This document shows positions 3,193-27,926 of a DNA stretch of 64,000 bases, in pieces. The DNA is from an uncultured Candidatus Woesearchaeota archaeon (lineage in GTDB: Archaea > Nanobdellota > Nanobdellia > UBA10117). Position 1 is the first letter of the stretch. Every line of letters begins with the position of its first letter. The stretch is taken from assembly GCA_903864915.1 (NCBI GenBank), contig CAIPHS010000011.1, positions 14,634-78,633 of the forward strand, given 5' to 3'. Below the pieces are notes generated by a model. It was not told where the DNA came from, searched no databases, and saw nothing but the letters and a program-made list of their open reading frames with translations. The position numbers and the translations under genes are program-made.

Positions 3193-3252
3193 AATAGTCT
3201 TTACTGCAGAATTGTTACAGAACTTTAAATTGAGTTATTCCGTTCACTTATC

Positions 3253-9563: not shown

Positions 9564-12500
9564 TCAGCGGGTCTTTCTTTTAGCTTCTTTTTCTTCTGCC
9601 TCTCTTTTTTTCTTCCGCCATATCGCCCAAATCAAATACAAAACTACTAAAAATGTCAATAATGTTTGTACATAGAACATATAACTTGGGGCAAATGCTA
9701 CTGAGGCTAACGGCTTTTCAAGGATTCTGACAGTTAAGTAGGCGCTGCCTGCTTCTATCCCATTTAACGTAATTCGGACATCTGCAACACCATCATCAGT
9801 CACATCAACATCGCCGCTCTCGTTGACGCCTAATTTAAGGCGAGATACTTTTGATTCTATCTGCAAATCTACAAAGTTGTCTGCAATCTGCAGAGGTGTG
9901 ATTGTGTGGTTAACTCCATCGTAAGTAAATACATGACTCTCGTTGACGCTGCTGTTATAATCATATACTGATGTGAAATTGAAATCACCTATGTAATATG
10001 TGCCAGTATATCCCGCCTGCCCTGGTAAAGTTTCATTTGCAACAGCTGAGACATTTGTGGTTGGCTTGCGGTGCTTTAGTATGCTTTCAAAACCTGATGG
10101 TGTCAGTGTTGTTGAAGTTGTTGTAAAGTTGTAAGGCCCTGATGTTACACAATTATTATACTGGTCGCACGATGTAACATTGAAGAAATATGTTGTGTTG
10201 GCGGATAAGCTAGCAAGTGCAAGGCTATGTGACAGGACAAAAGATGCACTGGTTATGTTGCTGCCCAACGCCAAGGTCGTGTCATAATCGATTGTGGAAT
10301 TCGCGAATACATTGGTGTCCCAAAGGATTTGTGTGCTGTTATCTGTAATAGATTGCGCGATTACATTACTTATTACTGGCGGAGTGATGTTTATCCACCA
10401 TGTCTCGTAAGCAGCAGTATAGTTCTGATTTCCTAAGAATTCTGCAGTAATATTATGCACTCCAAGCGCGTCGAACAACGTCACGTTTTGAGATGGTGAG
10501 GCTCCCGAATAGATTTGAGTTCCGTTGTCATACACTTGCATATCGCCTGTTCCGCTTACTAGAACTGCAGATATATTCACATAAGTATTATTCGACGTTG
10601 TAAAGTTAGCTCTTGATCCGTTCAGGTAGAGATAGATAACTCCGGTCACTGGATTAATTACATAAGAAAAGCCCGTACTTGCCGAAGTATAGTTTTGGCT
10701 TGCGGAAGTATTACAAACATAATTGTAAGTGTTTGCAGCCAGTGTTGTGTACATATTATTTTCGCTAGAGGTTACATCTACTCCGTCCCGGTACAGCTCA
10801 GTGGCAGCTTCAGGATTTGTGCAACTGCAAGATGCGTTTATTGCAGTTCCATAAGTCTGAGGTGATGTTGGATTAAATGCGAGATTGCAGCTTGATGTAT
10901 TCTGATTAACCGTCAGGAACCACGTTTCAAAGCTGCCAGTATAATTCTCATCACCTAAATTGACTGCAGTGTAATTGTAAGTGCCCGCAGCTAAAGTTGC
11001 GATGTCCTGGTTACTTACAGAACTTCCTTCTCTGTAAAGAGTTACAGACCCTACATCTGTCACAGCAGTCGCATTTGTCTGGCTCGGATATGTGACCGTT
11101 TCATTTGCTCCCATTCCATCCAGATAAAGCTGAGTGCTTGTTGATGTTTTGTTTATTGTCAGCGTGTTTGAAGCTGACTCTGAAGTATAATTTTGCGAAG
11201 CGGTATTATTGCAGACATAATCGTAAGTGCCTGCGGCATGAGTTATTGTGTAAGGAATACCCACAAACGTTCCATTTACATATAATTGTGGTGTTACCTC
11301 TGCATTATTCGCTGAACAATTGACTGTTGTTTCCGTCGGATATGTGTTTGTCCAGCTTGGAGATGCTGTCAGACTCAGAACTGTTGTTACCGGATCAAGC
11401 TCGTATATTGAACTGTTACTTGCTGTTGACCAATTGCCTGTTTCTGTTACATTACAGACATAGCTGTAGTTTCCCGCTGCGAGAGATGCGAACACATTAT
11501 TCTCAGTCGCTGTAACATCTGCATCGTCTCTGTACAATTTGGCTGACGATTCAGGATTTGTGCAACTGCAGCTCGCATTTACTGATGTCGGATATGTCTG
11601 TGGTGACGTTGGATTGAAATTCAGATAACAGTTGGATACATTTTTGAGTGTTACAGCTAACGTATTCGAAGTTGAAGCCTCTGTGTAATTCTGGGTTGCT
11701 GAGTTGTTACAGATATAATTATAGTTGCCTGGTGAAAGTGTTTGAACATCTGGATTGCTTGCTGATGTGCCGTTTCTGTAAAATGAAGGTGTTACTTGTG
11801 GTGTGTTTGTACCACAACTGACATTTGTCTGTGTTCCGTTAAATACAACCCATCCCGGACTTGCAGAGAGCGTAAGAACTGATATTGCCCTATCTACTAT
11901 TAGCAATCTTGCGGGGCTTGAGCCAGCTGTATAATTAACTCCGCCAGTCGTGTTGTAAACATAAGTGTAGTTACCTGCTGCCAGGGTCTGTACATCTGAA
12001 GCCGGGTCTCCCGAATTTGCCAGGATGCCATTTCCGTACAAGTTGAACGTCAAGTCTTGATTATTAACGAGGTCCGACCATCCGGTTGCGTTCGATTGAG
12101 TGCCATAAGTTATTGCGGTATCACTTTCTATTCCGTTTAATGCCAGTCCGAGGTTGCCAGAAGGATTTGCCCGAGTTATTGTATAGTTTGAACTGTTGCT
12201 TGCTGATGTATAGTTTTGTGAAGCTGAAATGTTGCAAGTGTAATTGTGAGCTTGCGCAGCCAATACAGTGTTTATGTTATTCTCAGTCACTGTAACATTT
12301 GCACCGTCTCTGTACAATGTAGCTGATGCTTCTGGGTTTGTACAACTACAAGATGCGTTTATTGCGGTGCCATAAGTCTGTGGTGATGTTGGATTAAAGC
12401 TAAGGGAGCAAGTAGATGTGACTTGACTGACAGTCACATAATATATTATTCCAGTCCCGTTTGCAGTATAATTCGTATTACCGGTGGTGTTCGCTTTGTA

Positions 12501-15500
12501 CTGATAATAACCGGCTCCAAGCGAAACATTCGTGTTCTTCTCACTCGTTACATTTGTTCCATTACGATAAATCTGGTCAGTGCCTGATGTTGAACTTGAG
12601 CTTGCATTAAGATTAGCACCATAAGGTATTGTTACATTATTTTGGATACCATTAAGAGTCAAATTAACAAAATCGTTCGCAGTACTGATCGTGAGATATC
12701 TTACTACTGTGCTTCCAGCAGTGTAATTAGTTCCGCCTGTTGTGTTGTACACATATACATAATTGCCTGCACCAAGAGTTGCAAGTTCAGTTGCCGGACT
12801 TCCGCTTGTAATAAAACTTCCATTTCTGTACAGATTAAATGTTAGGTCCTGGCTGACAGTTGAGATGCCTGTTGCATTGCTTGGGGTCCCGTAAGTTATT
12901 GTTGCATTGTTAAGAGCACTTTGTAAGTATAAGCTAAGCGAGCCAGATGGATCTGCTTTGTTTATCAACAATGTGTTTGTCTGCTGTGTACAATCAGAAT
13001 AATTTACACCACCTGTCCACTGGCAAGCATAATTATAAGATCCGGCTGTTGCGACCGCATCTGGTGAGCTCTTTGATGTGGAGTTCCTTGTGAAAGTCAT
13101 GCTTCCATCGCTTGAACCAGCTGAAACAGTACAGTTTGTGCTTGAAGATGTGCTATCGTAAGTCCTTGTCCAATTTTTGTCTGTAGCTAGCGTACACGTT
13201 CTTGTTGCCTGGTTTATTACAAAGTTGCTGGTGTTTGTGGCGCTGGTATAATTAGCATTACCTGTTGTGTTACATTCATATGCCCAGGTACTAACTCCAA
13301 GTGTTACAGCAGTCCCGTTTTCAGTCGCGGTTACATTAGTTCCATTTCTGTATAAAGCAACGGTGCCAGAGTTAGCTGTGCATGAACAAGTGGCTGTTAA
13401 GGCCGCACTATAATTCTGTGGTGTTGTCTTATCAAATGTTAAATTACACACTGATGTGCCCTTGTTCACAAACGCATAATAGGTGACGCCAGTGGCATTG
13501 TCGCTGTAGTTCGTATTTCCAGTTGCATTAACTTTGTAAGCATAAGTTCCGTTACCCAAAACAGATATGTTTACTTGTGGTGAAGCTCCGCTTGCCAGCA
13601 ACGTTGCATCCCTATACAAGAAAACAGTTCCAATTAGAGTTGTGCTGGTTGCGTTTATTGATTGTGGGTAAGTGTAAGTGCTATTTGCCTGCGTCCCGTT
13701 CAAGTACAGATTTACTGGATTGTCTGCCTTGCTTACTGTGAATGTTTGCTGCGCGCTTGCATTTGTGTTGCCAACAGAATCATTTGCGTAAGACTTCCAG
13801 TAGTATGTTCCGGCCCCAATTGTTGTACTGTAACTCCATACTCCGCTGGCATTTGTTCCTGACACAAGAGCCGCAGTATAGTTTTGAGCTGAGCCAGACC
13901 AGTTGCCGTCTATTTGTACTGTTGAGACATTGATATTATCTGCCCAAGTTATATTAAATACTGATGGTGTTGCGCTATATGTCAATGGAATACTTGATTG
14001 ATTATTGCTCCAGGTTGGTTTTGTATTGTCAATTGTAATTGTTCCGGCAGGATTGAATGAACTTGAATTGACAGTTCCGTCTCCAGCAGTGCAGTTGATA
14101 TCGACAACTTGCGATGCAAGAGCTGAGATATCCCAGTTGTATGCTCCTGTTGTGGATGAGTTAATGATATGCCATGTTCCGCTATCATTTGCACCTATGA
14201 AATACGTAATAGTATCTGTGTCCGCATCAGTTGAGCCTGTGCAGTTTATTGGGATTGTGCTGTTTGTGCCACCGTACATACCGGTTGTTGGTGTAAGTGT
14301 AGTTGGTGTTGTTGGTGCTGTGTTCTGAACAGTAGCGGTGCTTGAGTTTCTCCAACCAGTTGATTCGTTTGCGATACTATCACTTGCCATAGTAGCACAA
14401 ATTATTTGGTCGTTTTTATCTCCATTTCCAGCAATAGAAAGGTCCAAGGCGGAACTTACTTGTCCGCTGATTAAACCGTTGTTCTTGTACCATTGGTAAT
14501 ACCAGGCTGCTACGTCCCCATTAACATCAGTGAAGCTGCCATTTGTACAAGTAAGTACTGTATTTGTGGCAGGCGTAAGATTGCTTAGTGTAGGATTAGT
14601 TGAAGTTGGTGCTGTATTACTTGTTGTAAATGTCTGCGATGCGGATTTAGTCCATGTCCCTGTTGAATCATTTACCCAAACGTACCATCCAACAAGGCGA
14701 TTGTTTGTGGCATTGTTCAGTATGGTTATATTGCACCAGTTGGAGTTTCCGCTTAAAGAAGTAAATGATGTGTTAACAAAACTGCTACCTGTGTTGTTAT
14801 GTTCGATTTTACAACCGGATAGTCCATCAATGTCTGTAACATTTGCAGAGTAAAGCGCATTTACATTATGATTTGTGTCATTCATCGTAAAAGAAGCAAA
14901 TGTTGTGGCAGAGTCAGATATTGTTCTTGATGCTGAGTTAGATGTCCCGTTTACAAATGTGTCAGTTGGTATAACAGTACAAGTCCATGTCTGGCCTTTT
15001 GATAGGTTCCCGCTTGAAAGGTTGAATGATGTCTGTGAAACAAGCCCTGAAAGCACAGTGGTTGTTCCGTTAGTCCAGTTGAAGTAATATGAAATTGTAT
15101 CGCTGTCTGAATCAGTGCTTCCGGAAACCGAACAGTTCAAGTTGTCTGTTTTGTAAGCGGTTGCCGGAGCTATTGTAACAGTAGGTTGTGTAGGTGCATT
15201 GTTTGGATAAGTATTTGTGCCAGTAACTGAAGCAACGGCATTGCTCGTGTCATTGACTGTTATATTTATTGAAAGTGCTTTTACGGTTGTGGTATTAGTG
15301 CATCTAAATATAGTTTGATTGGTTGTTGAATTAATGCTTGTAGATGCTATTAACGTGCATTCTGTACTGTTGACTGTGACTGTACTTAGGTCTGTGTAGC
15401 TGTCCACATCAGTTACATTCACAGTTGCATTGAATGAATGTCCTGTTGTGTTGTTTGCGAAAGCAATTGCTGATATTGTTGGTACGCTGTTCTGGATTGT

Positions 15501-18500
15501 AATATTTGTTGAGTTCTTTGCAGTACCGTTCACAGTTCCATCATTTGGGATGACCTGGCAAGTCCAGTTATCTCCCTTTGTAAGGTTCCCTGATGTAAGA
15601 ATTGTAATATTTGTGTTTGTACCGTTTGTTATGCTAGTTTTTATTCCGCTAAAGTTTGCAGCGTTGTTCTTATACCATGTGAAATAAGCAGTAAGGCTTG
15701 TTTGTTCTGCGTCTGTGAGCGTTGCGTTACAATATAAGTTGTTAATTTTATAGGCAGTTGTCGGGTCAATTGTTGGAGTAGTCGTGTTTGGAGCTGTGTT
15801 TGGAACTGTTACATTTATTGTCGCGATATCTGTAACATTCCAGTTGCCCTGTGTGTCATTCGCCCAAATTCTCCAGCCAATTATGCCACTCACAGAACTA
15901 TTACTCCACGTGAAATTAGACCAGTTTCCAATGCTTGGGCCTATTTGCAACGGAGAGCCATAAACTCCGCTCTTGTTTGCCCACGCACCAGTCTCGTTTG
16001 TTGATAGAACAGCATAGCTTAGGTTAACATTGTCTGTCCAATAAGCTGAAAGTTTGACAGAGTCGGTATTGTTGATTGTTGAAGCGTTTTGGCTCTGGTT
16101 TGACCATCCTGGAGCCTGTATGTCCGTCCAGTTTACCTGCAGCAAAGGCCTTTGGTTTGCTGTCGCACTATTACTAGTTGTATATGTTTTTCTGGTGTTT
16201 TGTGTAGCCTCGTTACTATCTATTATTATCCATCCCTGGTTTTTGCTTTGGTTATCTGCAAAGATTTGTACATCATTAGTTACGTTAAACGAATAATACC
16301 CAGTTATGCTTACACCTGTGCTGGTTGAAAGAGTGGCGTTGTAATCGCCGCCAGCAGTTGTCCAGGCATTTCCTGTCGTATAATTGTTCCATGTTGCTTG
16401 AAGTTCGACCCATGTCCTGTTATCGTAAATTTTGTAGACATTGTGTGTTCTTGCGCCGGCGTCAGTAGCTGTAACATAAAATGTCAGATTGGCTTTGTCT
16501 ATCCTTACTCCAGAAGGAATACTTGAAAGATTGAATTTAATTAAGCTTCTATAAGCTCTGCCAGCGGCATTCCATTTACCAACTATCATGGTTGTGATGC
16601 TGCCATAATTGCTGTTGGCGCTTGCTTGATATATTTGCGTATCATTCGTCAGTGCAGTGCCGTTGAATTCGGCATATCCAGGATCGCCAGGTGTAATTGT
16701 TATGTTGTAAAGCGTTCCAGGCGTAAGTCCATATGCAATCGTATGCCACTGGCCTTCTTCACAAGTTTGCGCTGCGAAAGTATAATTGTCGCATTTTGTA
16801 AGTACACCTCCCGTAAGATTTACAGTAATGTTTGCTGTTTGGAAGCTGCCTAGCGGATTGACCGCAAAAATGTTTAATGCGCCATCCGATAGTCCTGGTT
16901 TATCAAACCCAGGCAATATAAAATTTGAATCAACGGTATAATTGTAGTACGTAATACTAATTGTTGGCGTATTTACTGGAGATATTTTTATAGTATAATT
17001 CCCAGCTATTAGGTCAAATGAGTATGTGGTGTTTGTCTGCAGGTATACTATTTGCCCCGTTGAATTTATTATCGTAAGAGTTGCATTTATCGCAGAACCG
17101 TTCGCACTTGGTATCGACTCATTCTGCTGCTTTGATACTGCTAAGGTTTGCGCTGTATTGTTTACCCATGTTGAGTTCACATTTCCAGCATTGTCTGCAG
17201 TCCTTATTTGTATCTGGTATGTTGTTGAATTACTTAGTCCGGTTGCATTGTAGTAGTTGTTTGAAGTATTTGTTTTGAATGTCCCGTTTAGCCATGCTTC
17301 TGCGTGATTAAAGTCAGCATCAGCAGGGTTTGTCCAGTTCCAGTATATCCAGTCTAATCCATACAACGGCGCAGACAATCCAGTAATTGTTGCAGGAGGT
17401 GTTGTGTCTAGTATTGTAACATTTGCATAATAAGTTACATTTGATGCAGTGTAATTCGTATCTCCAGGGAATGAGCCTGTTACGTTGTAATAACCTACCT
17501 GTGAAAGTGTCGTAATGTTAGTCAGGGGTGTAACTCCAGATTGCTGTGTCCATCCACTTATGTTTGTGTCCAGATAGACTGTCTTTCCGCTGGCATTTAT
17601 TGTAACAGTGAAGTTCGCGACATCACCCGTATTGTAACTTCTGTTTCCTTCAGTTCCGTTTAAGAAAAGTCTTGTCAGTGTTGCTGCCTTGTTCACTACA
17701 TAATTTGAGCTGTTAGTTGCACTAGTATAATTAGCATTGCCGGTGATATTGCACGTATAATTATATGTTCCAACCCCCAATGTTACATTTGAGTTTATTT
17801 CAGTTGTTACATTTGTTCCGTTCCTATAAAGCTGGGCAGTTCCTGCTGTGCATGAACATGAAACATTGAGTGATGTGCCATAGGTCTGTGGTGATGTTGG
17901 ATTAAAGCTAAGCGAACAGGCGCTAGTTGCCTGGTTCACAAAAGCATAGTAAGTGACACCAGTTAAGTTGTCACTATAGTTCGCATTGCCGGTGGCATTA
18001 ACTTTGTAAGCATAAGTCCCGTTGCCAAGATTTGACAAGTTAGTCTGTGGAGAAGCCCCACTAACCATCAAATTCCCATCGCGGTAAACATTAACAATGC
18101 CACCAGTTGAAGTACCAGTAGCATTAACAGTTGCTAGATAAATATACGTAACATTACTGTTAAGCGTACCATTTAAGTACAGGTTTACATTAATTGCTGT
18201 TTTATTTATGGCGAATGTCCAGTTTGCTGTGGAGTTCGGGTTCCCGTTAGTGTCATTAGCGTAAGACTTCCAGTAAAATGTTCCTGCAGGAAGTGTAGCA
18301 TTATAGCTCCAAATACCATTGGCGGTTGTTCCTGAGATAAGTGTTGCAGTGTAATTCTGCGGAGAACCTGACCAGTTCCCTTCTATCAAAACAGTTGAAA
18401 TATTTACGTTGTCTGCCCAAGTTATATTAAAGATTGAGATCTGCGAAGCATTATACTGTGTGGGGAAACTCGACTGATTAGTTGACCATGTTGGTGGATT

Positions 18501-20807
18501 TGTATCAGGCACAGTGTAATTTATTGTAACAGTATAATTTGCAGGAGCAAAACTGCACTGCGACCTGTTGTCACAGGCCCGGCAGTTCCACAAAATTGCA
18601 CCATTATTCAGATTCGTCCTGTTAAATGTAGTTTGATTTGATGTTCCGGAAGCATTCACTGTGCCATTAGCCAGGAAAGTTCCCGTATAATTCCAGTAGA
18701 AGGTGATATTAGAAAGTTTAATGTCATCAGTTGCATTACATGAGAATGTAACATTGTTTGACGTCGTTACATTTCCGTTTGCTGGGCTGACTAATGTTGC
18801 GTTAGGAGAAGTATCTGGAGTATAAGTAACATTAAAGAATAAAACATCCCAGAAGCCAACACCATTCGCACTTGGTGCGCCAACGCGTGTGATTTCTGCT
18901 TTTGCAAGAGCGCCTGTTGCGCTGGCACCAAAGAAGTTGCTGCAGCTCCAGCTTTCGTTGGCTGTTATGTTCTGACACGTCATGTTTGTTGGTTCTGATG
19001 TAGGTGGAATGGTGGTGTTAACTACAGTGTAGCTTGCTCCATTGTTAGCGTCCACTGATATATTGGCTACCGTTATGGCAGAACCGCTGTTATTGTACCA
19101 CCATTTGTAACATAAGGATACAGAGACTAGCGAACTGCAATCTGTAACGCTGGTGTTAGTAGAGTTTATCCTTATACCGCCATAATATGAGCTGGTAGTA
19201 TTTCTTCTCCAAGTGTGTAATTCGTAGCTGGTGTCGTCTGCGGTAAGAGATGATCCATTAGCCACCGTGCATGCGGCACCAAAACTATTCTGCGCTGCTG
19301 TGTCCTCTGCTGCACAATTTGTTATAGGTATTTGCGCGTACGCAGGGTCTTCTGGCGTTAGTACGAAACTATAATCCTGGCCCGGTGTTATACTTTGCAC
19401 AAATACCCAATCACCAGTGCAAATCTGATTTGCGAAATCCCAATCCTTACATTTATATAAGGAATCTCCGACAGCTGTACCTGTGACTGTTGCGCTAGTG
19501 AATTTAAACTGAGTTGGGTCGATTGCATAAATATCTACAAAATCGCCTGATGCTGACGGATTATCAATTTTAATGAAATCGGTAATATTTTGTTGGATAT
19601 CCAGATTTTCAAAGTCTATTTCTTTAATAGGATGATTTTGCAATTTGACATTAATGTTATATTCGCCCCTTGGAATGTCAAGACCTGGCTCGCCGGCAGC
19701 TTCTTCAATCGGTGCTTGTGTTTCGCTGGAGGCTAATGGCATTGGCTGTTCAATCTGATTTTCTGCAGGTGTTGTCTGAGCAGGAGTTTGCTCTGTCAGT
19801 GCGGAAGGTTGTTTTGCTGCTAGCTCTTTAAGTGTAACCGCTTCATCGCCTTTTTCGCTCTTTCCAATTGCTTCGACAGCATTTGTTTTGGTATTTGCAA
19901 ATTCGATGGTTGCTGGCACAGCATCTCCATTGGAATCTACTATTGTTGTTCCAAAAAATACAGTCTCATTTGTCTGGTTAACAGCTTCTGACTTGTTTGA
20001 GAGGGAATACGAAACCTCATCAATCTGCAATTCACTATGGTCAACTTCTATGATTAATTCGTAATTGCTCGCATCCAAGCCGTCTGGAAGCAGGCAGGTA
20101 TCTTCACAGACGTCTGTAAAGCTTATTGTTCCTGTTTGTTTCTCTGTGGTTACATTTGTGGCGTTAACCAAGGTCTCGTTTGTTGCATTTTCAGTAGGTG
20201 TGGTTAAATTCTCTTCGAGAACAGTAATGTTTTCAGCAGGCACTGCATTCTCGGATTGATTTTCAGTTGCACTTTCAGGGCTTAGCTGTTCCATTGGAGT
20301 TCCTTCGCCATTATTATCTGCTGAAATCGTGTCCGCTGCAACTGCGATGCTTTTTAGAGCACTCGAAGCATCAGAAGGTGATTGTGATTCCAGCTGTGCA
20401 GGTTCGCCCCCGCTGTCAGAAGAAGAGGCCGAACTTCCAGTAACATCTGTGAATAAACCAGTGGCCAAATCAGTAGCCTTATTCCTTAAAAGGTTTACAG
20501 AGTCAAAAACAATGAACGTCCCACTTGCCGTTTTAAGGAGAACTTTTGCCTGGCCTTCGCCTGAAAAATTGCCTGAGATTTTTACCGATTTCAAATTATA
20601 TGGCTGGCTTTCAGCGATATTTAAGACATAAGAGCTGTTTGAAGTATAAACCTCATTAACTGGGGTTGAAAAATTCTCTGAGGAAACAAAAAACCTTCCG
20701 GTGATTGCTGGGCCGGTGATTAAAAGGTTTGTTAAGATTATAAGATTTAAAGATATGATTAGTATGAACATGATTTGCGACATTGATAGCTTTCGCTTAC
20801 TCTTCAA
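9564..20807 (-). CDS. giant (3747 aa) repeat-rich, sequon-rich cell-surface protein
   Basis: Uninterrupted 11.2-kb ORF with a TTG start preceded by AAGGTGGTG. It has an N-terminal signal anchor and a C-terminal TM helix with a KR tail. In between are tens of ~85-aa Ig-like modules, two FN3-like modules and a DNRLRE-like module. Confidence 0.9.
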   Translation of the reverse strand: MKSKRKLSMSQIMFILIISLNLIILTNLLITGPAITGRFFVSSENFSTPVNEVYTSNSSYVLNIAESQPYNLKSVKISGNFSGEGQAKVLLKTASGTFIVFDSVNLLRNKATDLATGLFTDVTGSSASSSDSGGEPAQLESQSPSDASSALKSIAVAADTISADNNGEGTPMEQLSPESATENQSENAVPAENITVLEENLTTPTENATNETLVNATNVTTEKQTGTISFTDVCEDTCLLPDGLDASNYELIIEVDHSELQIDEVSYSLSNKSEAVNQTNETVFFGTTIVDSNGDAVPATIEFANTKTNAVEAIGKSEKGDEAVTLKELAAKQPSALTEQTPAQTTPAENQIEQPMPLASSETQAPIEEAAGEPGLDIPRGEYNINVKLQNHPIKEIDFENLDIQQNITDFIKIDNPSASGDFVDIYAIDPTQFKFTSATVTGTAVGDSLYKCKDWDFANQICTGDWVFVQSITPGQDYSFVLTPEDPAYAQIPITNCAAEDTAAQNSFGAACTVANGSSLTADDTSYELHTWRRNTTSSYYGGIRINSTNTSVTDCSSLVSVSLCYKWWYNNSGSAITVANISVDANNGASYTVVNTTIPPTSEPTNMTCQNITANESWSCSNFFGASATGALAKAEITRVGAPSANGVGFWDVLFFNVTYTPDTSPNATLVSPANGNVTTSNNVTFSCNATDDIKLSNITFYWNYTGTFLANGTVNASGTSNQTTFNRTNLNNGAILWNCRACDNRSQCSFAPANYTVTINYTVPDTNPPTWSTNQSSFPTQYNASQISIFNITWADNVNISTVLIEGNWSGSPQNYTATLISGTTANGIWSYNATLPAGTFYWKSYANDTNGNPNSTANWTFAINKTAINVNLYLNGTLNSNVTYIYLATVNATGTSTGGIVNVYRDGNLMVSGASPQTNLSNLGNGTYAYKVNATGNANYSDNLTGVTYYAFVNQATSACSLSFNPTSPQTYGTSLNVSCSCTAGTAQLYRNGTNVTTEINSNVTLGVGTYNYTCNITGNANYTSATNSSNYVVNKAATLTRLFLNGTEGNRSYNTGDVANFTVTINASGKTVYLDTNISGWTQQSGVTPLTNITTLSQVGYYNVTGSFPGDTNYTASNVTYYANVTILDTTPPATITGLSAPLYGLDWIYWNWTNPADADFNHAEAWLNGTFKTNTSNNYYNATGLSNSTTYQIQIRTADNAGNVNSTWVNNTAQTLAVSKQQNESIPSANGSAINATLTIINSTGQIVYLQTNTTYSFDLIAGNYTIKISPVNTPTISITYYNYTVDSNFILPGFDKPGLSDGALNIFAVNPLGSFQTANITVNLTGGVLTKCDNYTFAAQTCEEGQWHTIAYGLTPGTLYNITITPGDPGYAEFNGTALTNDTQIYQASANSNYGSITTMIVGKWNAAGRAYRSLIKFNLSSIPSGVRIDKANLTFYVTATDAGARTHNVYKIYDNRTWVELQATWNNYTTGNAWTTAGGDYNATLSTSTGVSITGYYSFNVTNDVQIFADNQSKNQGWIIIDSNEATQNTRKTYTTSNSATANQRPLLQVNWTDIQAPGWSNQSQNASTINNTDSVKLSAYWTDNVNLSYAVLSTNETGAWANKSGVYGSPLQIGPSIGNWSNFTWSNSSVSGIIGWRIWANDTQGNWNVTDIATINVTVPNTAPNTTTPTIDPTTAYKINNLYCNATLTDAEQTSLTAYFTWYKNNAANFSGIKTSITNGTNTNITILTSGNLTKGDNWTCQVIPNDGTVNGTAKNSTNITIQNSVPTISAIAFANNTTGHSFNATVNVTDVDSYTDLSTVTVNSTECTLIASTSINSTTNQTIFRCTNTTTVKALSINITVNDTSNAVASVTGTNTYPNNAPTQPTVTIAPATAYKTDNLNCSVSGSTDSDSDTISYYFNWTNGTTTVLSGLVSQTSFNLSSGNLSKGQTWTCTVIPTDTFVNGTSNSASRTISDSATTFASFTMNDTNHNVNALYSANVTDIDGLSGCKIEHNNTGSSFVNTSFTSLSGNSNWCNITILNNATNNRLVGWYVWVNDSTGTWTKSASQTFTTSNTAPTSTNPTLSNLTPATNTVLTCTNGSFTDVNGDVAAWYYQWYKNNGLISGQVSSALDLSIAGNGDKNDQIICATMASDSIANESTGWRNSSTATVQNTAPTTPTTLTPTTGMYGGTNSTIPINCTGSTDADTDTITYFIGANDSGTWHIINSSTTGAYNWDISALASQVVDINCTAGDGTVNSSSFNPAGTITIDNTKPTWSNNQSSIPLTYSATPSVFNITWADNINVSTVQIDGNWSGSAQNYTAALVSGTNASGVWSYSTTIGAGTYYWKSYANDSVGNTNASAQQTFTVSKADNPVNLYLNGTQANSTYTYPQSINATSTTLIGTVFLYRDATLLASGASPQVNISVLGNGTYAYKVNATGNTNYSDNATGVTYYAFVNKGTSVCNLTFDKTTPQNYSAALTATCSCTANSGTVALYRNGTNVTATENGTAVTLGVSTWAYECNTTGNANYTSATNTSNFVINQATRTCTLATDKNWTRTYDSTSSSTNCTVSAGSSDGSMTFTRNSTSKSSPDAVATAGSYNYACQWTGGVNYSDCTQQTNTLLINKADPSGSLSLYLQSALNNATITYGTPSNATGISTVSQDLTFNLYRNGSFITSGSPATELATLGAGNYVYVYNTTGGTNYTAGSTVVRYLTISTANDFVNLTLNGIQNNVTIPYGANLNASSSSTSGTDQIYRNGTNVTSEKNTNVSLGAGYYQYKANTTGNTNYTANGTGIIYYVTVSQVTSTCSLSFNPTSPQTYGTAINASCSCTNPEASATLYRDGANVTVTENNINTVLAAQAHNYTCNISASQNYTSASNSSNYTITRANPSGNLGLALNGIESDTAITYGTQSNATGWSDLVNNQDLTFNLYGNGILANSGDPASDVQTLAAGNYTYVYNTTGGVNYTAGSSPARLLIVDRAISVLTLSASPGWVVFNGTQTNVSCGTNTPQVTPSFYRNGTSASNPDVQTLSPGNYNYICNNSATQNYTEASTSNTLAVTLKNVSNCYLNFNPTSPQTYPTSVNASCSCTNPESSAKLYRDDADVTATENNVFASLAAGNYSYVCNVTETGNWSTASNSSIYELDPVTTVLSLTASPSWTNTYPTETTVNCSANNAEVTPQLYVNGTFVGIPYTITHAAGTYDYVCNNTASQNYTSESASNTLTINKTSTSTQLYLDGMGANETVTYPSQTNATAVTDVGSVTLYREGSSVSNQDIATLAAGTYNYTAVNLGDENYTGSFETWFLTVNQNTSSCNLAFNPTSPQTYGTAINASCSCTNPEAATELYRDGVDVTSSENNMYTTLAANTYNYVCNTSASQNYTSASTGFSYVINPVTGVIYLYLNGSRANFTTSNNTYVNISAVLVSGTGDMQVYDNGTQIYSGASPSQNVTLFDALGVHNITAEFLGNQNYTAAYETWWINITPPVISNVIAQSITDNSTQILWDTNVFANSTIDYDTTLALGSNITSASFVLSHSLALASLSANTTYFFNVTSCDQYNNCVTSGPYNFTTTSTTLTPSGFESILKHRKPTTNVSAVANETLPGQAGYTGTYYIGDFNFTSVYDYNSSVNESHVFTYDGVNHTITPLQIADNFVDLQIESKVSRLKLGVNESGDVDVTDDGVADVRITLNGIEAGSAYLTVRILEKPLASVAFAPSYMFYVQTLLTFLVVLYLIWAIWRKKKREAEEKEAKRKTR
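13209..14021 (-). repeat. intragenic segmental duplication, copy B (aa ~2263-2533 of the giant protein)
   Basis: Collinear with aa ~771-1040: PTWSxNQSS...NITWADN...YYWKSYAND...NLYLNGT...GNGTYAYKVNATGN.NYSDN.TGVTYYAFVN...CSCT...LYRNGTNVT. Confidence 0.8.
17688..18497 (-). repeat. intragenic segmental duplication, copy A (aa ~771-1040 of the giant protein)
   Basis: Partner of 13209..14021. Shared nucleotide strings include tctgcccaagttatattaaa. Confidence 0.8.
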
Positions 20808-20812
20808 AGTCT
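20666..20812 (-). repeat. leader cassette copy A (start codon plus signal-anchor coding region)
   Basis: Near-identical to 26071..26217, including a 38-nt exact run at 20743..20780 = 26148..26185. Confidence 0.9.
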
Positions 20813-20984
20813 GACACCACCTTCAATTGTGACCATCCTCCAATATACATTACAATAACAAAAGTGCCTATAAAAACATTTTGCAATTCAATATACCATT
20901 AAAAAAGGATAATAATATAATAACAAACTGTGAAAAATGATCCAGCCCAACAATTATTATCCCTTTCGAGTAATCCTGGTTTAA

Positions 20985-21797
20985 TTAGCGGCTCTTTCTT
21001 TTAGCTTTTCTTTTTTTGTTGCCTTTCTCGCTCTTGTAATACTGCCAAACTATGACTCCAACGAGTCCCAATAAAAGCCACCAGTACCAGCACAGGCTGA
21101 GAATTTCATAGCACGCATAGCTAACTTGTGGGCAATTCCCACCCGCTGTTACTTTTCCCGGCAATCCATATATTATAAAATCAGAGAATGATAAAAATTG
21201 AGCAGTGTAGTGGTAATAAACAATATCGGAACCCGTATTATTAACGTTTAAAACCTGCATATTACCATCATTAAATTTTTTAACGCCTATTGCCGATGGG
21301 CTTACGTTATGAATGGCTAGCCAGACTTTTGAAACCCTGAAGTTCAAATTGGCAGCGTTATACTGGTTAACAGTTATGCCATCGATGCGCACAGTTGCGC
21401 AATCGTAAAAAATCTCGCCTTCCTGCAGGCTATGATTCTGGCATCCTTCAGTGGTTATGTTTATAGTTCCTGAGTTGATATCCTGTGCAGCAACAAGAGT
21501 TAACCGGTCAAAAGGACTTCCAAACACGTCAATAGGAAAAGTTAGATTATCCCCCGCATGGACCGCATTCTGAATCGTATGCACGCCTTGAACGTAAATA
21601 TCTATGTAAGGTACGGTGGCATTCATTGCGCCGGCACCTGCATTTCCGCCTGCTTGCGGTGAAGGAGACGGCGGCGGTGTTGGACTACCTGGAACTGTGA
21701 GTGTAGCCCCAATGCCACCACTAGAATCGGCATGAACCGAATTAATAAAAACAAAAAGGGAAAGCACGATTAATGCCACCAAAAACTTCTTATCCAT
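20985..21797 (-). CDS. secreted PGF-pre-PGF-like domain protein with C-terminal TM anchor and KR tail
   Basis: Signal peptide (VHA/DS), Pro-rich linker and NLNFRVSKVWLAIHNV...VKKFNDG...YYHYTAQFLSFSDFIIYG. The ATG at 21797 overlaps the upstream TGA (TGATG); the ORF track extends to TTG at 21803. Confidence 0.7.
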   Translation of the reverse strand: MDKKFLVALIVLSLFVFINSVHADSSGGIGATLTVPGSPTPPPSPSPQAGGNAGAGAMNATVPYIDIYVQGVHTIQNAVHAGDNLTFPIDVFGSPFDRLTLVAAQDINSGTINITTEGCQNHSLQEGEIFYDCATVRIDGITVNQYNAANLNFRVSKVWLAIHNVSPSAIGVKKFNDGNMQVLNVNNTGSDIVYYHYTAQFLSFSDFIIYGLPGKVTAGGNCPQVSYACYEILSLCWYWWLLLGLVGVIVWQYYKSEKGNKKRKAKRKSR

Positions 21798-22300
21798 CAG
21801 CAATTCATCGTCACAGTTATTGTTTGGTTGTAAGTTGCGGGGTTTTGCGATGCCGGAACTGCCACACCAAAGTATAGTTGCAATGATGCCAATTTATTCA
21901 AGTTTCCACCAGCTATCACAACATCACTTGCAGTCAAAGCTGTTCCTGCGCCATACGTAAATCCGGATGTGCTGTATTGTGTCTGACCTACGACAAAGTT
22001 ATTAACACCGCCATCACTCCATTGCGTCCCTCTTGTGGTTGTGTTTGTTGCCTGCGCATTTCCATTGTTCGTTACATTAACAACTTGATTTGTAGCACCT
22101 GTATTTGTTCCGGCAGCTACTGAGCCAAAGCCTATTGAGCTTGTGTTTAGCGACAACATGCATTCCGCAGGAACCGTAACTTGTCCTGTTACATTGTTTG
22201 AGCTTGTATATGCATAAGCCATATCCACTGTGGCTAATAGCCCGACAATCGCCAGCGCTACAAAACCAACTATACCTATTAGCATTTGCCAGTTTTTCAT
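21797..22300 (-). CDS. small secreted pilin-like beta-sandwich protein (SCPU/Csu-like by eye)
   Basis: Signal peptide with an AYA cleavage-type site. The mature protein is a paralog of the C-terminal module of the 1142-aa protein and ends YNQTITVTMNC. GGAGGT lies upstream of the ATG. Confidence 0.7.
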   Translation of the reverse strand: MKNWQMLIGIVGFVALAIVGLLATVDMAYAYTSSNNVTGQVTVPAECMLSLNTSSIGFGSVAAGTNTGATNQVVNVTNNGNAQATNTTTRGTQWSDGGVNNFVVGQTQYSTSGFTYGAGTALTASDVVIAGGNLNKLASLQLYFGVAVPASQNPATYNQTITVTMNC

Positions 22301-22301
22301 A

Positions 22302-22793
22302 TTACCTCCGTCTCCTTATAATGCTCTCATACACTATATAGAGCAATATAAATATTATGGTTAGCGCAATTAGTAGCAAGCAAACTTCGGTTTTCAAAGA
22401 CAGCGAAACCTTATACACAAAATTCTTTTCCATCTCAGTCTGCAACACCACAACGCCACTAGCACCCCTTTCGTGCCCAAGCGCACGGACCTTACCGCTA
22501 AAACTACCTAAATGTTCCGCAGTTGCGGTTACATCGATTTGCTGCTGACTATGTGGCACTAACGTAAAATTTGCAGGCGAAACTGAAACTGTATTACCCA
22601 CATAATACGTGTTAACATCTATAGTAGTCTCGCCAGGGTTTACAACCCAATAGGTCAATGTTTTGTTTTCGCCTAACTTCAGTGTTCCAAAGTCCAATAC
22701 GCCCGCAGTCTGGCCAAATTCTGCACTCGCTATGCTCAGTGTTGCAGACAGCAACATACCTAACAACACTAGCACTTTAATCTTATTTTTCAT
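22302..22793 (-). CDS. membrane-anchored single Ig-fold protein (PapD/ASH-like by eye)
   Basis: Signal peptide. The segment LDFGTLKLGENKTLTYWVVNPGETTIDV...VSPANFTLVPHSQQQIDVTA follows the ASH/MSP/PapD-like pattern. C-terminal TM helix plus RRRR. Confidence 0.65.
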   Translation of the reverse strand: MKNKIKVLVLLGMLLSATLSIASAEFGQTAGVLDFGTLKLGENKTLTYWVVNPGETTIDVNTYYVGNTVSVSPANFTLVPHSQQQIDVTATAEHLGSFSGKVRALGHERGASGVVVLQTEMEKNFVYKVSLSLKTEVCLLLIALTIIFILLYIVYESIIRRRR

Positions 22794-22801
22794 TGTTTCC
22801 C

Positions 22802-25800
22802 CTAACAGTTCATTGTAACTGTTATTGTTTGATTGTAAACCGCGGAATTTTGTGCATTCGGAACTGCAAGGCCCCAGTATGTATCCAAACTTCCACCAGA
22901 TGAAATATTGCCATTTGCCAAGGCAGCATCTGATGCTGTCAAAGCGCTGGTCAATGACGTATAAGTTACATTTGTATCACCATACTTTGTGTAATTAACA
23001 ATGAAGTTATTACTGCCGCTATCTGTCCAATTGGTACCGCGTACAGTCGTATTTGTTACTGTCGCAGTTCCAGTGTTATTGATCCTTAACAACAAACTGT
23101 TCGCCCCCGTATCGGTGCCTGGCGCAACTGTACCGAAGTTCAGCAAGCTTGTTGACAGAGAGGCTATACACGTGGTGTTTACATTAACTGTTAATGTCCG
23201 GTTTGAAGATGCAAATGCGCAATTTGCGGAAGAATCACAGGCTTTGCAGTTCCATGTATAAGTACCAGTTGTAAGGTTGAGTGTGAAGTTTGCATGGGTT
23301 GACGTGCCCGAAACAACTGCTGTCTGGTTAAGGCTGAATGACTGATTGCTTGAATTAGTTATGTACATGCTGATGTTCTGCACATTATTGTTATCTGTTG
23401 CGTTGCACTGGAACGCAACTGTTGCTGGAGATATTGTGCTGTAACCGTTCAGCGGGCTGCTAAGTGCGACGCTGGGCAGAGTTGTGTCTATGATGTTTGC
23501 GTAAACATATTGTATGCTGTTGCTCACGCCGTTTATGTCAGTGGCATTTATTGTTATCTTATACGTGTCAACATAATTCGTGTTTGAGTAACCTGTTTCC
23601 CAAAGTCCGGATGTTGCATTGTAGATTAGTGAAATTATTTCATATCCAATACTATATGATATGTTTGCGGTGACTGTGCTCACTCCAGCTGCGTCTGTTA
23701 CATTCGCCTTGATAGGTATTATGCTTCCAAGCACATAATTGGTTCCATTTACGGGGCTTGTGATGTTTACAGTCGGAGGCGTGATACTATATGCGAAATT
23801 GTATGTTGTGTTAACATAACTGCCATCAACATTTCGTATTGTGCCGCCTGTGCTGTTCATGCAGGCTGCGTAAATTCTATATGCGCCATCTCCAAAGCTG
23901 AGGTTGTTTGTACTGTAGTTCATTGGGTTCCAGATGGTATCGAGCTTTAATATCTGGGATGGCTGCAGTTGCCTCGGCGTTGTTTCGTTTACAACAACGT
24001 CATCATCTAACCATGTGGTGCCGTTCCAGTACTGTGTTTTCATTAAGAGATAGCATGATGCATTTGTTGTTCCATTGTTTAACAACTTGCTCTGGTTTTC
24101 GGGAGCTGTGGTGACTGTCTTGAAAAAGTTAAATTCGGCCAATCTCCATTCAAATCCCCGGTTGTTGGCGATTGCCCTGAACTGTATGCGTGCCTGACTT
24201 ACATTTGTCTGGTTGAAACTTGCTATTGTCCAGGCACTGTCAGTAAAAGAACTGTTGTAGATATTTATCCAGCTGCTGCCATTGTATATGTCAACTGTTG
24301 CAAGGTCAACATCAACTGACTTTGCATTAAACCTTATCTTGTCTGAAAGCACAGGAGTTCTATTCAAATACAGATAGAAACTCATTAGTCCATCCGGATC
24401 ATTTGCTTCATGATAGCTGCGGGTTTCTGTAACAAGTTCATCATCAAATGCAGATATTTCATTATCCCATTGGTTTGAAGGATCATCGTAACCTGTTGCG
24501 GATACCCAGCCCACCGCAGCAGGGCCTGTGGTGAATGACTGGTCCGAACCATTTGTCTGTCCAGCGCTGTTGTTAATCTGCGCAATAAAGTGATATGTCT
24601 TTCCGTTTTGCAGTCCGTTAATTCTGCTAGACATAGAAAAGACTGTGTATTCTGGAGACTGCCAGTCAGTTGCGTTTGTATATGAAGTATTTTCTCCGTA
24701 AATGAACCTTATCTGGCATTTGTCTCCACCATCACTAAGAGTGGTAGCATGAAGAATTGCAGTATCATCTTCTACTGCGGTTGCTTCTCTCGTCGTGACA
24801 ACTGGCAGGTTTACCTGCGTGGATATGTTATAGAACTGGAACTCGTACAGCCAGTATATCCAGCCGCCAACAGTATAGTTAAACCTGAACCTTCCGCCCG
24901 TAACATTTCCTATTGTGAAATTTGCTTCATACCAATTAAGATTGTCAATAGGGCCTTGGTAAACATCAGTCCAGTTGCCATCCCTAACTACATCTATGTC
25001 AACTGCATTTACCTGCGTATAGTAATCTGCCCAAACTCTGACACGGTCAGATGTTATCTGGCTAACATTAAATGTTATGAATGAACCCCAACCTGCACCA
25101 GGGTTGGAATTATCGCTTGCATAGGTATGCGTATCGCCATCCATCGAGTTAGGCAAGTTTGTCCAAAGCCCGGTTGGGTCAGAGTTATTTGATGGTAATA
25201 TCCATAAACCAGGCGGGTCGCCAACGCTTATGTATGAATAATACTTTTTGCCCAGGCTGTTTGTGGCTGTAAGCAGAACTACGTAATGCCCTGGCAGCTT
25301 GTTTCCAGAGGACCATATTGCCTGCCATGTGCCGTCAGTTGAACTTCCATTAACAAGACTCAAAGACACTTCTTCGCTGCCTGCCGAGGTCGGTATCTGT
25401 GCAGTTACGTTTGATACTGCACGACTGCCCTTAACATGTGCAGATATAAGCAGTTGAGAAGATTCAATTCCCGTCAATCCAAATCTGCCAGAACCTCCAC
25501 CTCCGCTTGGACCAACATAAGTACTTGTAATCTGAGGAGCATCAGCATCGGATTCATCAGGGTCGGTTATGTTGATGCCTTGATTTGCAGTATAGCCTTC
25601 TTTTAGCGTATGTACTTGTATGGAAAGGTTCTGGTAGCTTACAGTTACATTCCTTGTTTCTGTAGAGTTGCTGTTTCCAATCGTGTCTATTGCGGTCGCA
25701 TTGAATAAGTAAAGTCCATTGGACAAATCAGTAAAGTTCGCAAAATTAGGTGACGTTAAAGTTGTAGTTGAATTAATTAATGATGTAGAGTTATACAAAT

Positions 25801-26230
25801 TGATAGTTATGTTAGCCAAACTAGCGTCTAAAGCTGTTGCATTAATCAGCACGAAATTTCTATTTATAGAAGAACCTGATGTTTCTGTCGGAGTTACAAA
25901 TTGTACCTGTGGGTCTGGAGCGGCTATAATTATGTTTCTTGTTTCAGTTGTATTTTCAAGTGAAACATTTTCAGCAGGCGCTGCATTCCCTGATTGATTT
26001 CCAGTTGCGTTTTCCTGGCCCGGTTGTTCTGTTGGAGTTCCTGTGCCGGGATTAGGAATTGAAAAGTTAGTTGAAAAATTTCCGGAGGAAACAAAAAACC
26101 TGCCCGTGATTGCTGGGCTGATGATTAGAAGATTTGTCAGGATTATGAGATTTAAAGATATGATTAGTATGAACATGATTTGCGATATTGATAGCTTACG
26201 CTTACTCTTCAGATATGACTTTCTCGCCAA
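22802..26230 (-). CDS. 1142-aa multidomain adhesin-like surface protein with C-terminal pilin-like module
   Basis: TTG start preceded by GGGAGGTGGTGG, and the same leader as the giant protein. Contains Ig-like modules, an FN3-like module, two discoidin-like modules, and a last ~125 aa homologous to the 167-aa protein. Confidence 0.85.
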   Translation of the reverse strand: MARKSYLKSKRKLSISQIMFILIISLNLIILTNLLIISPAITGRFFVSSGNFSTNFSIPNPGTGTPTEQPGQENATGNQSGNAAPAENVSLENTTETRNIIIAAPDPQVQFVTPTETSGSSINRNFVLINATALDASLANITINLYNSTSLINSTTTLTSPNFANFTDLSNGLYLFNATAIDTIGNSNSTETRNVTVSYQNLSIQVHTLKEGYTANQGINITDPDESDADAPQITSTYVGPSGGGGSGRFGLTGIESSQLLISAHVKGSRAVSNVTAQIPTSAGSEEVSLSLVNGSSTDGTWQAIWSSGNKLPGHYVVLLTATNSLGKKYYSYISVGDPPGLWILPSNNSDPTGLWTNLPNSMDGDTHTYASDNSNPGAGWGSFITFNVSQITSDRVRVWADYYTQVNAVDIDVVRDGNWTDVYQGPIDNLNWYEANFTIGNVTGGRFRFNYTVGGWIYWLYEFQFYNISTQVNLPVVTTREATAVEDDTAILHATTLSDGGDKCQIRFIYGENTSYTNATDWQSPEYTVFSMSSRINGLQNGKTYHFIAQINNSAGQTNGSDQSFTTGPAAVGWVSATGYDDPSNQWDNEISAFDDELVTETRSYHEANDPDGLMSFYLYLNRTPVLSDKIRFNAKSVDVDLATVDIYNGSSWINIYNSSFTDSAWTIASFNQTNVSQARIQFRAIANNRGFEWRLAEFNFFKTVTTAPENQSKLLNNGTTNASCYLLMKTQYWNGTTWLDDDVVVNETTPRQLQPSQILKLDTIWNPMNYSTNNLSFGDGAYRIYAACMNSTGGTIRNVDGSYVNTTYNFAYSITPPTVNITSPVNGTNYVLGSIIPIKANVTDAAGVSTVTANISYSIGYEIISLIYNATSGLWETGYSNTNYVDTYKITINATDINGVSNSIQYVYANIIDTTLPSVALSSPLNGYSTISPATVAFQCNATDNNNVQNISMYITNSSNQSFSLNQTAVVSGTSTHANFTLNLTTGTYTWNCKACDSSANCAFASSNRTLTVNVNTTCIASLSTSLLNFGTVAPGTDTGANSLLLRINNTGTATVTNTTVRGTNWTDSGSNNFIVNYTKYGDTNVTYTSLTSALTASDAALANGNISSGGSLDTYWGLAVPNAQNSAVYNQTITVTMNC
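26071..26217 (-). repeat. leader cassette copy B
   Basis: Partner of 20666..20812, offset 5405 nt. Confidence 0.9.
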
Positions 26231-27895: not shown

Positions 27896-27926
27896 ACTTT
27901 TAAGACTTATTTTTTAAACAAATCTT

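Follow-up and report, generated by a model that had tools for sequence, protein, structure and literature searches.

A life attached to other cells is presumed for DPANN archaea, yet in hardly any of them have the contact molecules been identified. Could such a molecule be recognised from its gene? The question is raised by a contig from an uncultured Candidatus Woesearchaeota archaeon (GenBank assembly GCA_903864915.1, contig CAIPHS010000011.1, positions 14,634 to 78,633 of the forward strand); this whole stretch of 64,000 nucleotides is referred to below as the window. It contains an open reading frame (ORF) of 3747 codons, the product of which, a modular protein hereafter called the giant, was singled out in a preliminary description made from the sequence alone as a glycosylated surface protein and a candidate for host attachment. 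Our computational follow-up leads us to regard the giant as probably a type-I-like, C-terminally anchored DPANN surface glycoprotein that acts as a long-reach adhesin. All coordinates are positions within the window, and the giant ORF lies on the minus strand, as do all of the features assigned to it.

Ends, composition and topology of the giant

The giant ORF (9564..20807; 3747 aa) starts with a TTG codon in the ORF listing and ends with a stop codon at 9564-9566. Its translation is free of internal stops and it spans 17.6% of the window, in agreement with the preliminary description, which had reported a single uninterrupted frame of about 17%. The predicted protein has a mass of 399 kDa, a pI of 4.37 and a composition rich in T (15.1%), N (11.8%) and S (10.8%). 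A Shine-Dalgarno-like AAGGTGGTG is located 7-8 nt before the TTG, within an AT-rich intergenic region of 177 nt (20808..20984) that also carries a TTTATA-like element and may function as the promoter. Positions 20490-20959 share 68.5% identity with a giant paralogue in a relative (locus L085), over its 5′ end and the region upstream of it.

Only two hydrophobic segments were detected in the giant (aa ~6-31 and aa 3709-3730), each with a basic stretch beside it. The first belongs to an N-terminal signal/anchor (aa 1-36; 20700..20807), in which the basic n-region KSKRK is followed by a 20-aa hydrophobic core and then TGPAITG. The second, recognised by its hydrophobicity, is a C-terminal transmembrane (TM) helix (YMFYVQTLLTFLVVLYLIWAIW; 9618..9683), behind which lies a KR-rich cytoplasmic tail of 17 aa (RKKKREAEEKEAKRKTR; 9567..9617). 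The signal anchor, the helix and the tail had all been proposed in the preliminary description, and each was found at its expected place. Together, the two end-placed hydrophobic segments and their flanking basic residues support a predicted topology that is extracellular and C-terminally anchored. Two other possibilities were considered and rejected. A class-III (type-IV-pilin-like) signal peptide was discarded upon inspection, since no [KR]-[GA] cleavage motif stands ahead of the hydrophobic stretch, and a PGF-CTERM/archaeosortase anchor was discarded because the C-terminus (...APSYMFYVQTLLTFLVVLYLIWAIWRKKKR...) lacks PGF. An NCBIfam scan of aa 3470-3747 likewise returned no PGF-type match and no TIGR04213.

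Domain architecture and the immunoglobulin-like stalk

The domain layout was derived from self-comparison and iterative hidden Markov models (HMMs), with boundaries set by hand, and comprises about 35 globular domains of the beta-sandwich type. At the N-terminal end, domain A (aa 36-125; 20433..20702), a small beta domain distantly akin to a ~100-aa Big_7-like type, is followed by an acidic, S/E/P/Q-rich linker (linker 1, aa 123-215; 20163..20441; 16 D+E, 1 K+R), by domain B (aa 215-330; 19818..20165), which has two Cys and no family match, and by a second acidic linker (aa 330-375; 19683..19820; 7 D+E, 1 K+R). Both linkers, defined by composition, lie where the preliminary description had located them. 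Head domain C (aa 376-497; 19317..19682) is a beta-sandwich with two Cys and the motif YAIDPT...KCKDWxF...C...LTPEDP, of a type widespread among DPANN surface proteins, whereas head domain D (aa 498-680; 18768..19316), with six Cys, is a predicted beta-jelly-roll resembling carbohydrate-binding modules (CBMs) of the CBM4/22/35 type.

Two ~100-aa Big_7-like immunoglobulin (Ig)-like domains follow (aa 681-868; 18204..18767); here, PF17957 Big_7 scored 14.3 bits over aa 680-870, below its threshold of 24.1 bits. They lead into stalk modules M1-M3 (aa 869-1130; 17418..18203), FN3-like domain a (aa 1133-1225; 17133..17411), a second C-type domain (aa 1264-1385; 16653..17018; 36% identity to aa 415-492) and a DNRLRE/Disaggr_repeat (CBM96-related) domain identified by profile matches (aa 1390-1558; 16134..16640). 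The central block (aa 1560-2359; 13731..16130), which has no Pfam or NCBIfam family match, consists of about eight beta-sandwich domains of two ~100-aa types plus one singleton, with zero or two Cys each. Thereafter come the 13 tandem modules M4-M16 (aa 2360-3475; 10383..13730), all full-length and in register, FN3-like domain b (aa 3476-3565; 10113..10382; two Cys) and a membrane-proximal C-terminal domain (aa 3566-3700; 9708..10112) that is conserved with a syntenic sister-genome protein. The resemblance of domains a and b to FN3, suggested in the preliminary description, is plausible, but both missed the PF00041 threshold of 25 bits, domain b with 21.5 bits (Pur_ac_phosph_N, 20.6 bits) and domain a with 15.0 bits over aa 1134-1224 (E = 0.028).

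The ~85-aa Ig-like module family that dominates the stalk (aa 869-1130 and 2360-3475) numbers 16 copies by HMM, not the "tens" first supposed, and its members share 30-69% identity; some ten further beta-sandwich domains of ~100 aa belong to other types. Two of the 16 modules, M9 and M10, were modelled with AlphaFold2 (AF2) from a 38-sequence alignment and fold as tandem Ig-like sandwiches, with a predicted local distance difference test (pLDDT) score of 97.4 and a predicted template modelling (pTM) score of 0.83. Foldseek matched this model, with a probability of 1.00, to an Fc-gamma receptor, CEACAM, the PKD domain of SorCS2, the Fn3-like domain of CbhA and the BIg domain of SiiE (2yn3). These results support an Ig-like beta-sandwich as the predicted fold of the stalk modules, directly for the two modelled and by extension for the rest, as the preliminary description had anticipated.

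Paired cysteines

A four-Cys signature (C-x-L-x-F...CSCT...Y-x-C-N) had been attributed to many of the modules. The motif is real, but it is confined to five of the 16, or six if one variant four-Cys module is included; two others have two Cys and eight are Cys-free. All four motif Cys fall in predicted strands. Across 315 modules from 100 proteins, the second and fourth Cys (C2-C4) covary with a phi of 0.97 (both present in 75 modules, single in 2 + 2, neither in 236), and the first and third (C1-C3) with a phi of 0.83 (34/8/4/269). In the giant itself, the Cys count is even (0, 2, 4 or 6) in all 35 delineated domains, as bounded by hand. Because Cys are gained and lost in pairs and per-domain counts are even, the pattern bears the signature of intradomain disulfides, and it supports the extracellular disulfide bonds previously proposed as a likely feature of the giant.

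A DsbA-like thioredoxin-fold protein is encoded on the plus strand at 8..514 (Thioredoxin_4, 4e-33; DSBA, 1e-16). The presence of this gene at the start of the window is confirmed, but not the functional link to the giant that had been drawn from it: since the gene is some 9 kb off, behind unrelated genes, its proximity carries no weight. What its sequence does indicate is that the organism has the capacity for extracytoplasmic disulfide formation.

Selection for N-glycosylation sites

The giant contains 257 N-x-S/T sequons (6.9 per 100 aa), compared with 110.5 +/- 8.8 in 500 shuffles (maximum 140), in keeping with the extreme density claimed in the preliminary description. NxT sites outnumber NxS sites (177 vs 80), and the reversed pattern [ST]xN occurs 122 times. 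Among the 57 ORFs of the window, the sequon z-score is 16.3 for the giant, 8.7 for a 1142-aa neighbour, 4.1 for a 369-aa ORF and 2.6 for a 272-aa neighbour; the excess is limited to predicted exported proteins, with cytoplasmic proteins of the window reaching z <= about 1. The module family as a whole averages 6.1 sequons per ~85 aa over 411 homologous modules, 95% of which keep one particular NYT site. These patterns support the view that N-glycosylation sites have been selected for, that this selection is specific to secreted proteins, and that it is a trait of the entire module family. Of the heavily N-glycosylated filament or coat originally envisaged, the enrichment of sites thus stands, being strong and secreted-specific, while occupancy is what we infer from it.

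A mosaic gene in a variable surface-protein island

The gene content of the window supports its assignment to DPANN. Archaeal markers include aIF5B with domain 4, an exosome superoperon comprising proteasome-alpha, SBDS, Rrp4, Rrp41 and Rrp42, and a presenilin-type signal-peptide peptidase. Form-III RuBisCO and a ribose-1,5-bisphosphate (R15P) isomerase of the IF-2B family, which also count among these markers, are encoded in tandem at 768-3192, a pair for the salvage of adenosine monophosphate (AMP) and nucleosides that is typical of DPANN and Candidate Phyla Radiation (CPR) genomes. Members of the 90%-identity clusters of housekeeping genes are, moreover, labelled "DPANN group archaeon" by NCBI.

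Homologues of the giant were sought with three sub-queries instead of the full-length sequence. The head query (aa 1-700) yielded four matches, the acidic linkers having probably swamped the word index, and the central block retrieved 3,807 homologous representative proteins (335 at E <= 1e-30), many of them giants of 3,000-5,694 aa. Named homologues come from Aenigmatarchaeota, Pacearchaeota, Woesearchaeota, Nanoarchaeia and Micrarchaeota and are annotated as PGF-pre-PGF, DNRLRE or DUF2341 domain-containing proteins or as Ig-like domain repeat proteins (e.g. P0003, P0008, P0025, P0091 and P0100); some family homologues bear beta-helix, polysaccharide deacetylase, laminin-G or peptidase S8 domains. 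None of the homologues found is collinear with the giant. P0200 (3,773 aa) and P0201 (5,014 aa) contain blocks 39-66% identical to it in rearranged order, and P0200 was rejected as a full-length orthologue, given that its common blocks (47-62% identity) follow a different order. An exact look-up of the giant protein, in its TTG-start and first-ATG versions, returned no record.

Sister genomes provided a closer comparison, with flanks (loci L085, L086, L087 and L088) 78-84% identical to the window at the nucleotide level. The island between a conserved SpoIIM-like gene and the genes for a major facilitator superfamily (MFS) protein and NDK (8627-9436 to 26681-28457) encodes proteins of 3747, 272, 167, 163 and 1142 aa in the window; in the sister genomes, the same interval holds a protein of 2,155-2,212 aa and small ORFs, including one of 94 aa. 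Beyond SpoIIM, the sister genomes encode giants of 2,299-2,461 and 4,069-4,122 aa, where the window has small ORFs only. Between the giant and the syntenic sister proteins, only aa 3473-3730 (FN3-like domain b, the C-terminal domain and the TM helix) are conserved, at ~50%, whereas the head (aa 33-492) is ~40% identical to other, non-syntenic sister giants; the giant thus joins the head of one paralogue lineage with the anchor of another. Since conservation at the syntenic locus is confined to the anchor region and the head resembles that of other giants, the giant is best described as a mosaic in a variable surface-protein island. The comparison of length polymorphism across relatives, suggested in the preliminary description, showed that the proteins do differ, but to an extent that far exceeds repeat number.

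In two of the sister loci, the syntenic giant is present as two ORFs (L087, 10940-18276; L088, 6206-13587), the first of 276 and 291 aa (MTKSRKIE...) and the second of 2,155 and 2,188 aa, respectively. L085 and L086 have a single ORF of 2,197 and 2,212 aa with the same N-terminus as the short piece in L087 and L088. A frameshift, pseudogenisation or a sequencing error could account for the split.

In Nanoarchaeota, no genes vary more than those for cell-surface proteins (PMC6142677), and a mosaic locus of the kind seen here would fit the rapid diversification of a partner-recognition molecule. A bolder proposal, to which we give only tentative credence, is that the SpoIIM-MFS/NDK interval is a dedicated recombination hot-spot. 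In this view, several giant paralogues would draw their heads, stalks and anchors from a common pool of cassettes, in the manner of phage tail-fibre mosaics or antigenic-variation loci, and novel partner specificities would arise within a short evolutionary time; the stalk, with about six N-glycans per 85-aa Ig module, would then be an N-linked "mucin-like" glycan brush that has no described archaeal counterpart.

Would a purely structural role explain these data equally well? The giant might belong to a coat or glycocalyx, either associated with a surface layer (S-layer) or acting as a glycan "brush" for protection, hydration and spacing, with no part in specific attachment. A TM anchor, an acidic pI and an extreme sequon density are typical of the envelope glycoproteins of archaea; no obvious binding feature is seen in half of the stalk modules; and the upstream neighbours of the gene are of the envelope type too, one of them with a PGF-pre-PGF domain. 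The S-layer protein SlaA of S. acidocaldarius is likewise extracellular, N-glycosylated, acidic and built of beta-sandwich domains. Its 1,424 aa, however, carry 31 sequons, 27 of them confirmed as glycosylated (PMC10903991), or 2.2 per 100 aa, so that the much longer giant is about three times as dense in sites. Furthermore, lattice proteins are normally conserved in close relatives, whereas only the last ~260 aa of the giant are kept at the syntenic locus. A string of ~35 domains with flexible acidic linkers is no lattice-forming design, and lectin-type folds are present. A coat function is consequently an alternative that we judge unlikely, if still credible.

Candidate ligand-binding domains

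The AF2 model of the head (aa 376-690) is all-beta, with a pLDDT of 84. Together with M9-M10, likewise beta, this is the extent to which the domain-by-domain structure prediction advocated in the preliminary description was carried through. By Foldseek, the second domain of the head matched CBM4 (1gu3; probability 1.00, TM-score 0.57 to target) and 1ulo, and it also matched CBM22, CBM35 and Bacteroides surface glycan-binding proteins; in a viral structure library, it resembled phage tail proteins and CenC-like CBMs. At ~10% identity, such matches speak to fold class, and the CBM-like character of domain D is accordingly to be taken as a lead for glycan binding and no proof of it.

The DNRLRE-like module had been predicted in the preliminary description, and it was recovered here over the full length of its models. 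Disaggr_repeat (Pfam PF06848; aa 1390-1558) is the sole family recognised by whole-protein scans of the giant, at 43.9 bits vs a cut-off of 33.9 (positions 2-179 of 179). NCBIfam DNRLRE_dom (NF033679) was missed by a whole-protein hmmscan at E <= 0.1, but the isolated segment aa 1380-1570 gave 94.6 bits vs a cut-off of 34 (positions 2-164 of 164). As this case illustrates, whole-sequence filters can mask strong domains in very long, compositionally biased proteins. The residues in question (aa 1390-1558) form a bona fide DNRLRE domain, a family related to CBM96; the latter (TM6-N4 of an alginate lyase, PDB 7VBO) binds alginate and is ~30% identical to the DNRLRE family (PMC9971899).

The same folds would also suit a protein that binds polysaccharide or matrix, such as exopolysaccharide (EPS) or plant or algal glycans, for substrate capture or biofilm anchoring, and not a host. 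Consistent with this are the matches to CBMs of glycoside hydrolases and to Bacteroides glycan-binding proteins, the alginate-binding relative of DNRLRE and the homologues equipped with beta-helix, polysaccharide deacetylase, laminin-G and peptidase S8 domains. Yet whole-protein and segment scans against Pfam and NCBIfam detected no ATPase, catalytic or other enzymatic family in the giant, DPANN genomes of this kind generally have no polymer catabolism, and the turnover of the locus in sister genomes better fits partner-specific recognition. We therefore hold this alternative to be distinctly improbable.

Far less probable still is a role in interaction with viruses, with the giant as a variable decoy or receptor under a glycan shield and with archaeal viruses, in place of host recognition, driving its diversification. 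Its hypervariable mosaic locus, dense glycan shield and a head fold common to phage tail and receptor-binding proteins might be read in this way, but family scans of the window ORFs found no viral or defence genes beside the giant, and the phage likeness is generic to jelly-rolls (E about 1e-3 to 1e-5, with low TM-scores).

Assembly support

Independent ENA assemblies match the window at 24968-14424 (99.98%) and 24868-14387 (99.97%), a Logan contig matches 8420-10248 at 100%, and a fourth assembly contains a 787-aa C-terminal fragment of the giant at the same spacing from SpoIIM. About 78% of the giant gene matches independent assemblies, the check at the DNA level covering 9564-10248 and 14387-20807. 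The remaining part, which encodes aa ~2141-2960 (11928..14386), is covered by no independent assembly, and exact-match probes of the Joint Genome Institute (JGI) metagenome collection for this middle of the gene found nothing. Repeats inside the ORF have a DNA identity of 80% at most, and exact repeats do not exceed 29 nt. The worry over assembly voiced in the preliminary description is thus largely answered, save for 11928-14386.

Three short-read assemblies (L082, L083 and the ERZ1426813 contig) break within ~40 nt of one another, at 14387-14424, where there is no long repeat; possible causes are a drop in coverage, heterogeneity among strains and an artefact of the library. An Illumina adapter remnant forms the end of one contig and unrelated junk that of another, and these are therefore coverage or graph-tip ends, not repeat joins.

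That the 11.2-kb ORF is chimeric, or contains a repeat array that was collapsed or expanded in assembly, is, of all the explanations, the hardest to believe: although every independent short-read contig ends inside the gene (~14387-14424 on one side, ~11927 on the other), leaving the interval between them uncovered, and neither version of the protein is on record, the exact repeats are too short to mislead assembly with k-mers above ~31 nt, the reading frame is uninterrupted over 11.2 kb with 13 array modules full-length and in register, the contig ends are remnant or junk sequence, and giants of 3-5.7 kaa made of the same modules are common.

A model for long-reach adhesion

In the model that we favour, the basic n-region and hydrophobic core would direct the giant to Sec export, and the C-terminal TM helix and KR tail would stop its transfer, leaving ~3,650 residues outside the cell. 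The predicted ectodomain of ~35 beta-sandwich domains (16 Ig-like modules of ~85 aa, about ten other Ig-like domains and two FN3-like ones) would be stabilised by intradomain disulfides, as the covariation suggests, and clothed in an N-glycan coat, with ~6 sequons available per module. Given the typical length of Ig domains, the string might extend over ~100-150 nm and hold the membrane-distal head A-D, with its CBM-like jelly-roll, away from the cell surface. This head and the mid-stalk DNRLRE/CBM96-related module are the likely ligand binders and, judging from fold class, would probably recognise host-envelope glycans or extracellular polysaccharide. Variation in locus content between sister genomes, combined with shared modules, could then diversify partner recognition. 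With regard to the host attachment first proposed for the giant, its surface location, Ig-like stalk and DPANN origin have been computed here, and attachment itself is suggested by architecture and analogy; indeed, a host-adhesin role is plausible in light of other DPANN giants (PMC10266531).

Several observations weigh against the adhesin model. The CBM-like assignment was made at ~10% identity, with TM-scores of 0.5-0.57 to target, and jelly-roll folds also have non-lectin roles. When the DNRLRE segment was compared by phmmer with 7vbo_A, the only solved member, the direct match was weak (E = 0.11 over 160 residues), and glycan binding by this domain of the giant is putative; most DNRLRE domains have no known function (PMC9971899). 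The head, ~40% conserved among paralogous giants, could instead serve export, assembly or self-interaction. No AglB/oligosaccharyltransferase or glycosyltransferase was found among the ~47 of 57 ORFs scanned in the 64-kb window, and the ~22% of the gene at 11928-14386 has no match in independent assemblies.

Relation to known systems

Giant Ig-repeat surface proteins of DPANN archaea have already been described; the mosaic protein reported here is newly found and does not constitute a new type of system. Named DPANN modular surface proteins resemble the giant in head domains C and D, the ~85-aa Ig-like modules and DNRLRE (30-62% identity), as well as in their sequon density of 6.1 per module and their paired-Cys pattern. 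They differ from it in that none is collinear and those found reach at most about 2,060 aa. Homologues of the PGF-pre-PGF type differ further, the giant having neither a PGF-pre-PGF domain nor a PGF-CTERM signal.

The SPEARE-type giants of Nanohaloarchaeota (SVXNc_0300, 9,409 aa; BNXNv_0298, 8,880 aa), for which host binding has been proposed (PMC10266531), were compared by description. Like the giant, they are DPANN proteins with a Sec-type N-terminus, long Ig-like/fibronectin-like runs and an acidic pI; each is the largest gene of a small genome, shows lineage-specific rearrangement and has a proposed role in host binding. Unlike the giant, which has no ATPase and a tail of 17 aa, they carry a VirB4/TraG-like ATPase, which the revised definition of the type requires, and a role within a secretion device has been proposed for them (PMC10266531).

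Among bacteria, Salmonella SiiE, Marinomonas MpIBP and Lap-type adhesins similarly use a tandem Ig-like stalk to hold ligand binders far from the cell. These BIg adhesins are type I secretion system (T1SS) substrates that are rigidified by Ca2+, held in the outer membrane through their N-terminus and not N-glycosylated, whereas the giant, saturated with sequons, is predicted to be Sec-type and disulfide-bonded, with a C-terminal TM helix as its anchor. The resemblance is one of design analogy and not of family membership.

Neighbouring genes and other window ORFs

Upstream of the giant, a same-strand cluster (20985..26230, minus strand) encodes four secreted or anchored proteins of 272, 167, 163 and 1142 aa, as judged from family scans and sequons. 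The 272-aa protein, directly adjacent to the giant (20985-21803), contains a PGF-pre-PGF domain (TIGR04213, 43.2 bits), and no other PGF-pre-PGF was seen. At its C-terminus, a TM helix is followed by a KR tail, with no PGF motif. The sequences suggest that plain TM anchoring is used in this lineage where euryarchaea use archaeosortase sorting.

The 1142-aa ORF (22802-26230) scored above the Big_7 threshold (36.4 bits) and has the same signal sequence as the giant. Over their first ~47 codons, the two genes (giant, 20665-20806; 1142-aa ORF, 26070-26211) share 90% DNA identity and specify a common signal, KSKRKLS[M/I]SQIMFILIISLNLIILTNLLI..PAITGRFFVSS.NFST; the remainder of the genes is unrelated. 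This suggests an export cassette that was duplicated or converted between them. A second paralogy links the whole of the mature 167-aa protein with the last ~115 aa of the 1142-aa one, and each ends in ...YNQTITVTMNC; the region spans 21797-22300, 22302-22793 and 22802-23150 (the 1142-aa C-terminus), with the 163-aa gene in between. The 163-aa protein has an ASH/HYDIN Ig-like (PapD/MSP-like) domain according to Pfam, as well as a TM segment. From this Pfam match, it is conceivable that the 163-aa and 167-aa proteins form a chaperone and subunit pair; no sequence relatives of either were found in the PDB.

Elsewhere in the window, a 369-aa ORF (42595-43704, minus strand) has no Pfam match, one hydrophobic segment and eight sequons vs 2.3 expected (z = 4.1). 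It is followed by a 239-aa ORF (41879-42598, minus strand) with an N-terminal hydrophobic segment and ten Cys. Both may be further small surface glycoproteins. A presenilin-type signal-peptide peptidase is encoded at 60284-61177 (PF06550, 91.7 bits) and may help to clear the signal peptides of the many exported proteins.

Implications for DPANN biology

For a group of archaea in which contact molecules are so scarcely known, the giant offers a concrete candidate that lends itself to testing one domain at a time, through its Ig-like stalk unit, its CBM-like distal head and its DNRLRE module. With ~6 sequons per 85 residues and strictly paired Cys throughout the family, its modules should also serve well as a test case for the glycoproteomics of archaea and for oxidative folding outside the cytoplasm. 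Finally, the comparison of loci, in which only the membrane anchor is fixed while heads and stalks appear to be swapped among giants, may offer a handle on the evolution of host range.

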